IMG/VR virus record: IMGVR_UViG_2671181136_000011
Length of the DNA stretch: 4,084 nucleotides
From: a virus
Taxonomy: Duplodnaviria; Heunggongvirae; Uroviricota; Caudoviricetes
Reading direction: 5' to 3' (one strand)
Part shown: one piece after another, positions 3,941 to 4,084 of the stretch
How positions within the stretch are numbered: the first letter of the stretch is position 1
Layout: each line of letters begins with the position of its first letter
Made by a program: the position numbers and the translations under genes
Notes under the pieces: generated by a model
What the model was told of the DNA's origin: nothing
Database searches by the model: none
The model's input: the letters and a program-made list of their open reading frames with translations, nothing else

Positions 3941-3954
3941 ATCATCCCCCTGTG

Positions 3955-3983
3955 AAAAAAGACACGGGGGCATTTCGCCCCCG
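3955..3983 (-). terminator. Intrinsic-terminator-like hairpin on the minus strand between E and FI: 7-bp all-GC stem (3983..3977 pairing with 3971..3965), 5-nt loop, 4-nt spacer, then T6 (3960..3955)
   Basis: Minus-strand text gagCGGGGGCgaaatGCCCCCGtgtcTTTTTTcacagggggatgatATG. It starts 8 nt after the E stop codon and ends just before the FI ribosome-binding site. Orientation matches the direction of transcription. Confidence 0.5.
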
Positions 3984-3991
3984 CTCACGGA

Positions 3992-4084
3992 TTATTTCAC
4001 CTGTACCACCACAAACTCATCCGGGTCCGGCAACACCATCAGCGGCGCGGACTGCGTCATGGTAAATTCACGGGCGGGATCCCC
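3992..4084 (-). CDS. E: Major capsid protein E (lambda gpE-like), C-terminal 30 codons plus stop; the gene continues beyond the window end
   Basis: Minus-strand translation GDPAREFTMTQSAPLMVLPDPDEFVVVQVK* matches the lambda gpE C-terminus as recalled (...GDPAREFTMIQSAPLMLLADPDEFVSVQLA). Stop TAA at 3994..3992. Confidence 0.85.
   Translation of the reverse strand, partial: GDPAREFTMTQSAPLMVLPDPDEFVVVQVK

Follow-up and report, generated by a model that had tools for sequence, protein, structure and literature searches.

Comparison of relatives indicates a conserved terminator-like hairpin between capsid gene E and FI in lambda-like prophages

Terminator-like hairpins next to the major capsid gene have been annotated or predicted in several phages. 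The record of the lambdoid phage HK97 (NC_002167) lists a 'putative terminator', a short G/C hairpin with tetraloop (GGGCGGG-GAAA-CCCGCCC-UUUU), 7 nt past the stop of the major head gene and before the next head-completion gene. Further 'putative terminators' precede the protease/head module and flank the major tail gene at either end; all of these HK97 sites are predictions only. In phage T7, the terminator Tphi is recognised by T7 RNA polymerase, terminates most transcripts experimentally and is a true attenuator; Q-type antitermination is not known in T7 or in SPP1. The T7 record annotates Tphi as a hairpin with U-run directly after capsid gene 10 and before the tail genes. Other intercistronic hairpins stabilise mRNA, as is the case for the malE-malF REP, the puf operon hairpins and papBA, where a stable hairpin is found at the 3' end of a cistron needed in larger amount within a polycistronic transcript. 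For the P22-like phage L, a terminator was predicted at the end of the procapsid module in a late operon with a single promoter, and the roles of such sites were stated as not known (PMC8022706). In SPP1, a predicted terminator (8775-8815) overlaps the stop codon (8777) of the major capsid gene 13 (PMC6316719).

The window, i.e., the whole stretch of 4,084 nt which was analysed, contains on its minus strand late-operon genes of a lambda-like prophage in the order E (final 90 nt only), FI, FII, Z, U, V, G/T and H (start only). The upstream part of the capsid gene E is cut off by the window edge. The 205 nt at the start of the mRNA strand, which comprise the 3' end of E, the spacer and the first part of FI, share 99.5% identity with phage 21 and are found unchanged (100%) in several complete E. 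coli genomes. In phage 21, the region matching E is annotated as major capsid protein. The assignment of the two genes as capsid E and FI, made originally from the sequence alone, was right. Between them lies a spacer of 51 nt, which is the only sizeable non-coding gap of the window; the remaining gene junctions are overlaps or gaps of 7-14 nt. The features of this region are the following (all on the minus strand):

3995..4084, minus strand: 3' end of the major capsid gene (homologue of lambda E and phage 21 gene 7), translation ending in ...LPDPDEFVVVQVK before the stop codon
3992..3994, minus strand: stop codon TAA of E, invariant in 45 haplotypes
3977..3986, minus strand: 5' arm of the hairpin according to the folds, with the core GCGGGGGC (3984-3977) and a marginal 2-nt extension GA (3986-3985)
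3972..3976, minus strand: loop GAAAU, with the variants GAUAU and UAAAU in relatives
3961..3971, minus strand: 3' arm of the hairpin, with the core GCCCCCGU (3971-3964), a bulged G3963 and UC (3962-3961), which pairs with GA 3986-3985 in the local MFE structure
3955..3960, minus strand: U6 run, read from the sequence (a T-run in the DNA)
3945..3950, minus strand: Shine-Dalgarno sequence GGGGGA of FI; phage 21 records carry a ribosome_binding_site annotation at the matching position
3566..3940, minus strand: coding sequence of FI (DNA-packaging chaperone) with ATG at 3940-3938, the next gene downstream of the hairpin

In the list of open reading frames, FI begins with GTG 3988 (minus strand) and thus reads across the hairpin and the U-run. 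This GTG is not the real start of FI, since the phage 21 annotation has the ATG at 3940 (375-nt gene). Where an automatic gene caller chooses the start of the longest ORF, the element between E and FI would be hidden.

Two further observations were made in the window. A mosaic junction was found inside FII at about 3480-3300: E through FI to early FII are 98-100% identical to phage 21, and downstream of the junction the similarity to phage 21 falls to 60-90%, whereas identity to phage PhiR12_2_star is 92-98% there. Near the end of G, an in-frame slippery heptamer G GGA AAG (1057-1051, minus strand) is present at the position expected for the -1 programmed frameshift of the lambda-type G/GT; the phage 21 record annotates a joined G/GT frameshift product.

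The hairpin begins 5-7 nt past the stop codon of E (2 nt in lambda). Its stem consists of seven G:C pairs (CGGGGGC 3983-3977 with GCCCCCG 3971-3965) and is closed by the wobble G3984.U3964, which gives eight pairs. Between the seven G:C pairs and the U6 run the sequence is UGUC, or GUC when counted from the 8-bp stem, i.e., a gap of 3-4 nt. Spacer length, stem, loop, T-run 4 nt further on and the following FI ribosome-binding site all match what had been read from the sequence originally. The simple 8-bp hairpin (3984-3964) has an energy of -16.8 kcal/mol and is the strongest hairpin of the window on the mRNA strand. The local fold of 3991-3955 reaches -17.7 kcal/mol (z = -2.84; 2 of 200 shuffles were as good). 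In the local MFE structure, the G.U pair, the bulged G3963 and the pairs A3985-U3962 and G3986-C3961 form a 10-bp stem with the U-run abutting. The 2-bp extension contributes less than 1 kcal/mol, and folding the 26-mer by itself did not reproduce it.

With 8 bp and a 5-nt loop on the transcribed strand, the hairpin agrees with the stem of an intrinsic terminator (about 5-14 bp, loop of 3-8 nt). The expected U-tract of about 7-9 nt directly after the stem compares with a U6 which begins 3-4 nt past the G/C stem and abuts the stem only via the marginal bulged extension; the site passes a consensus terminator-pattern scan. An approximate terminator score was calculated with a formula after d'Aubenton-Carafa et al. 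1990 and modern energies, for which the threshold of zero is only approximate; the hairpin of the window is weakly positive (+5.9). In close variants, a U5 directly abuts the stem (L088) or the run is a U7 (L052). The spacer between stem and T-run, which the original prediction called atypical for a terminator, may be partly stem, as in the local MFE structure. The second-strongest hairpin on the mRNA strand is located in the 5' part of V (2212-2190, minus strand; CTGGCACC-GGTAAAA-GGTGCCGG, -14.1 kcal/mol). It lies inside the coding sequence, has no T-run and may be due to chance.

Judged on the window alone, the case for the hairpin is weak, being within chance for a 4-kb GC-rich window. Of 200 mononucleotide shuffles of the complete window, 31 contained an equally strong hairpin at some position, the terminator-pattern scan found 3 sites compared to 3.5 expected, and the fold of 71 nt around the hairpin is unremarkable (z = -1.29). 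A scan of the whole window with the covariance models of Rfam 15 (E up to 1) gave only a chance miRNA match elsewhere (E = 0.24). Two things together raise the hairpin above chance: it occupies the only sizeable non-coding gap, and it is conserved in relatives.

For the latter, loci with an E-type capsid gene were gathered from IMG/VR and from one genome per species, the stop of the capsid gene was located and the downstream sequence was examined. A hairpin was found directly after the stop in essentially every locus whose capsid shares about 60% identity or more with lambda E or phage 21 gp7, and the stems differ among clades at the homologous position. The 21-type, as in the window, has the stem GCGGGGGC/GCCCCCGU. 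The E. coli/Shigella type has GAGCGGGAGC-UAAAU-GCUCCCGUUU with UUUUU directly abutting, and the Providencia type has CGGCGGG-GAAA-CCCGCCG-AUUUUU. In lambda itself, ATGGCCC-UUCG-GGGCCAU and then UGUUUCUCUG are found right after the stop of E; the original prediction was aware of no matching element in lambda, yet a hairpin is present there at the homologous position, though its stem differs. The Phytobacter type reads CGGCCC-UUCG-GGGCCG-UUUCUUUU and the aeromonad type CATGCCCC-UGAAU-GGGGCAUG-AUUUUU (its 3' arm is also written GGGGCATG). Further stem types were found in Serratia, Erwinia, Enterobacter, Kluyvera and Trabulsiella, and a distant alphaproteobacterial clade has 8-10-bp G/C hairpins followed by C/U-rich tails. 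A hairpin without any U-run is present in Trabulsiella guamensis (11 bp), in Buttiauxella and in the alphaproteobacterial clade. The element between E and FI is present in about 29% of the complete E. coli genomes (1552/5426).

In the T. guamensis locus (L091:2527-2600), the capsid is 80% identical to phage 21 gp7 and is followed by the different 11-bp hairpin without U-run. A Shine-Dalgarno sequence comes directly after the hairpin, and then a gene starting with MNKSLMPDSE..., which is unlike the FI starts of the other loci; in this phage, a module boundary exactly at the hairpin is thus suggested. Lambda-type E was also found on short contigs (L094-L109, L127-L135) in assemblies of unrelated taxa, namely Chromatium, Kitasatospora, Neobacillus, Bradyrhizobium, an Akkermansia MAG, Prevotella and others. 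In two of these contigs the spacer after E was read; it is identical to lambda in L094 and one base different in L107. These contigs look like lambda DNA contamination rather than real prophages.

Over 43 non-redundant loci, the best hairpin within 60 nt after the stop of E has a median energy of -12.5 kcal/mol, compared to -5.2 kcal/mol for 266 other same-strand ORF stops of the same loci (Mann-Whitney p = 7e-9). The approximate terminator score is positive at 17 of 35 sites downstream of E. The 14 distinct sequences of the 21-type are, without exception, paired at each of the 8 core positions (100% of pair cells). Five one-sided changes of the stem all lead to G.U (C-to-U), one change is compensatory (G-C to A-U) and G-to-A changes were not seen in the stems of the 21-type relatives. 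In the lambda-type, an outer pair is U-A in some sequences and C-G in others. From the direction of the changes that are tolerated, the constraint would act on the mRNA strand. Because divergence is low, covariation statistics within a type are weak, and the argument for conservation therefore relies mainly on the different stems at one position.

Polymorphism, expressed as minor-allele fraction among 45 distinct 21-type haplotypes, amounts to 0.008-0.011 for the stem, 0.013 for the loop and 0.015 for the U-run, compared to 0.084 at third codon positions of E and 0.258 at third codon positions of FI. The Shine-Dalgarno sequence of FI has 0.10 and the spacer from there to the ATG 0.21. Stem and U-run thus vary about 8-fold less than the third codon positions of E, which places both under constraint. 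By these comparative data, the hairpin and U-run after E are judged to be a real, selected element that is conserved as a structure across divergent stems. The original prediction had named a lack of conservation among close relatives as part of the outcome that would speak against it; instead, the hairpin is conserved and the stems differ.

A second terminator-like hairpin is found in most relatives between the decoration gene (D/shp) and E, a region outside the window. It is usually stronger than the hairpin after E and at least as canonical. Examples are located as follows:

L007:1445-1475: hairpin between D/shp and E in a locus with identical phage-21-type head genes
L113, L124 and L169, about 1430-1500: hairpin between D/shp and E

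The upstream partner is GGCCGC-CUGU-GCGGC-UUUUUUU in lambda (L094, about 1490-1520), GGCCGC-AGAC-GCGGC-U8 in Phytobacter and GGCCGC-GGAU-GCGGC-U7 in the aeromonad type; phage-21-type loci have a 9-bp palindrome with a weaker U-rich tail. Of the 153 control stops, 23 were terminator-positive, and each of these belongs to the D/shp homologue, the gene just upstream of E; the 130 other control stops gave no positive. Judging from these sequences, the capsid gene E is bracketed by two terminator-like hairpins in relatives. E is the most abundant head protein. Since the hairpin after E is kept as a structure throughout the lambda-E capsid family and has a second hairpin upstream of E as its partner, any explanation must cover a terminator ahead of the most highly expressed head gene.

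Compared with the systems described above, the locus shares with HK97 a hairpin just 3' of the major capsid gene in a late operon and, in the relatives, also a second hairpin 5' of the capsid gene or module. The stems have no sequence in common, and HK97 gp5 belongs to a capsid family unrelated to that of lambda E. In HK97 the major tail gene is bracketed as well, whereas in the E-type phages the tail gene V is without bracketing hairpins; in the window, no hairpin follows this abundant major tail gene and the gap between V and G is 13 nt. The rule 'hairpins mark abundant genes' hence fails as a general one. Tphi of T7 resembles the present element in its position directly after the capsid gene and before the tail genes, but has a longer stem (-28 kcal/mol). 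From phage L and SPP1, the locus differs in capsid family and host, and both of their sites are predictions only. The malE-malF REP, puf and papBA hairpins need no U-run and are not terminator-shaped, and REP is dispersed, whereas here the U-run is constrained and a single locus is concerned. The element is, as far as its sequence tells, an unannotated example of a type of terminator-like phage hairpin that has already been annotated or predicted elsewhere. The general class given in the original prediction, a terminator-like or 3' stabilising hairpin, agrees with both anatomy and conservation.

The reading which we prefer, and which we hold to be evenly poised between right and wrong, is that of an intrinsic-terminator-type element which would stop unmodified polymerase, would be read through by Q-loaded polymerase and whose hairpin would stabilise the capsid message. 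Polymerase without Q, e.g., from stray initiation in the prophage or late region, would terminate at the element, probably with moderate efficiency. Q-loaded polymerase from the late promoter would pass, as the Q nozzle would keep the hairpin from forming in the RNA exit channel; the Q type of this prophage is encoded outside the window. It has been described that Q forms a nozzle on the late-operon polymerase, which precludes formation of terminator hairpins (Yin et al. 2022, PMC9388147). With a canonical hairpin directly upstream of E, read-through is needed for any synthesis of E. After extrusion, the hairpin would fold and might act as a barrier to 3'-to-5' exonucleases, whereby the capsid segment would outlive the downstream FI/tail segment. 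The U-rich stretch may also leave the ribosome-binding site of FI single-stranded.

The hairpin is located at the 3' end of the upstream cistron E, as expected of a stabilising intercistronic hairpin. A role of the structure itself is suggested by the observations that the hairpin is kept more widely than the U-run, that extra-stable UUCG and GAAA loops are present and that the hairpins are confined to the flanks of the capsid gene. The constrained U-run of the 21-type and the canonical upstream partner point to a role in termination. The 3' stabilising hairpin, which was the second option of the original prediction, is viable and is part of the preferred reading. Several points weigh against this reading. 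A U-run would not be needed for a pure exonuclease barrier, but it is under as much constraint as the stem. Ribosomes ending on the heavily translated E would melt the hairpin repeatedly, as it starts 5-7 nt past the stop, and a role as barrier is weakened by this. Finally, the U-run is constrained in the 21-type but absent in some clades, so that no single function explains all cases.

The same U-run, being as conserved as the stem, together with the canonical terminator upstream, would also fit an element that is a fail-safe terminator only and halts polymerases lacking Q, e.g., after stray initiation in a lysogen, before FI and the tail genes, with no effect on mRNA stability in the lytic cycle. 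Stopping non-antiterminated transcripts was proposed by the authors of the phage L study (PMC8022706). This explanation leaves the capsid-specific siting unaccounted for (none of the 130 other stops; the major head and major tail genes in HK97), and several clades keep a strong hairpin without U-run. We regard it as unlikely, though with a real chance of being correct.

A partial attenuator that favours capsid transcripts was the first option of the original prediction. A fraction of the late-operon polymerases would stop at the U-run and capsid mRNA would outnumber the mRNA of FI, FII and the tail genes. The terminator shape, the constrained U-run and the analogous position of Tphi after gene 10 in the T7 record are in line with this, and partial termination is listed among the possible roles of intra-operon terminators in phage L (PMC8022706). 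However, Q-loaded polymerase is built to ignore hairpin terminators (PMC9388147), and the stronger hairpin directly upstream of E in most relatives, if leaky, would cut E itself. A terminator-shaped hairpin before the most-needed head gene cannot be an effective attenuator in late growth. The lambda head contains about 415 copies of E and 405-420 copies of D, so that both are needed in about equal number despite the terminator-like hairpin between their genes. Low-copy head genes are located upstream of D and E on the same transcript, hence transcript dosage cannot set the ratios. Sampson and colleagues (1988) reportedly attributed late-gene ratios to translation initiation, which likewise counts against an attenuator. 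Considering the upstream hairpin and the Q nozzle, attenuation has lost ground and is distinctly unlikely.

It is very unlikely that the main function is control of FI translation, with hairpin and U-run organising the ribosome-binding site of FI, either by the U-run as a standby or S1-binding site or by a long-range helix which couples FI to E. The order of hairpin, about 10 U-rich nt, Shine-Dalgarno sequence and ATG is conserved, and the 71-nt MFE structure pairs GUGA with UCAC and UCC with the G-run of the Shine-Dalgarno sequence. A helix hiding the FI Shine-Dalgarno sequence was rejected, as the 71-nt fold is no better than its shuffles (z = -1.29). The long-range pairing is also broken without compensation (GUGA to GGGA in L046 and L064; CAC to CAA in L051), and no part of the spacer varies more than the Shine-Dalgarno region. 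For the U-run, a secondary role as standby site is possible.

A further reading concerns the action of Q. 'Q-dependent' terminators have been hypothesised, with a hairpin, a spacer matching the nozzle extension and a U-tract of 7-9 nt; the required spacer length was not stated, and genome searches were urged (Yin et al. 2022, PMC9388147). Rather than a defect, the gap that separates the stem from the U-run may be an adaptation to the Q nozzle, whereby the element would terminate or attenuate Q-loaded polymerase specifically after the capsid gene. The 3-4-nt spacer (U)GUC is nearly fixed in the 21-type, but the U-run has 6 nt compared to the 7-9 nt hypothesised, and the spacer may be stem. In other clades the spacer is not conserved: it is 0-1 nt in L088 and in the Providencia, Phytobacter, Pluralibacter and aeromonad types, or a clear U-run is missing. 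To our knowledge, no natural 'Q-dependent' terminator has been found so far, and we consider this reading a long shot. In a milder variant of it, the two hairpins flanking E could define a discrete, doubly capped and long-lived capsid mRNA cut from the late transcript.

That the hairpin has no function in RNA and is instead a palindrome due to chance, a site acting at the level of DNA, a dispersed repeat or a linker from recombination at a mosaic boundary is almost certainly wrong, since independent stems occupy one position in many clades and their changes keep pairing on the mRNA strand; no match to an Rfam family was found. In favour of this reading, equally strong hairpins occur in 31 of 200 window shuffles and lambdoid genomes are mosaic. 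Also rejected were a terminator of the opposite strand (the plus-strand hairpin is without T-rich tail, the T-run being on one side only), a dispersed repeat (the 40-mer occurs at 2301 places and the E-FI junction at 2437, which is about equal) and a mosaic junction or linker (the switch from phage-21-like to PhiR12-like sequence is in FII, away from the spacer).

The element between E and FI is unannotated in the lambda, phage 21 and E. coli RefSeq records inspected. A description of the hairpin in lambda or phage 21 was not found among the full-text papers that were searchable. In the EHEC Term-seq paper, lytic induction was not followed by Term-seq and the capsid region goes unmentioned, and the lambda RIL-seq preprint reports sRNAs near pR' and none at E-FI. 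As HK97, T7, SPP1 and P22-like phages already have terminator-like hairpins after the capsid gene, the finding matters little for classification. Its modest value would lie in function: the 51-nt non-coding spacer, which can be mutated without changing a protein, would be a clean place to examine the ideas of a terminator, a stabiliser and a Q-dependent terminator.
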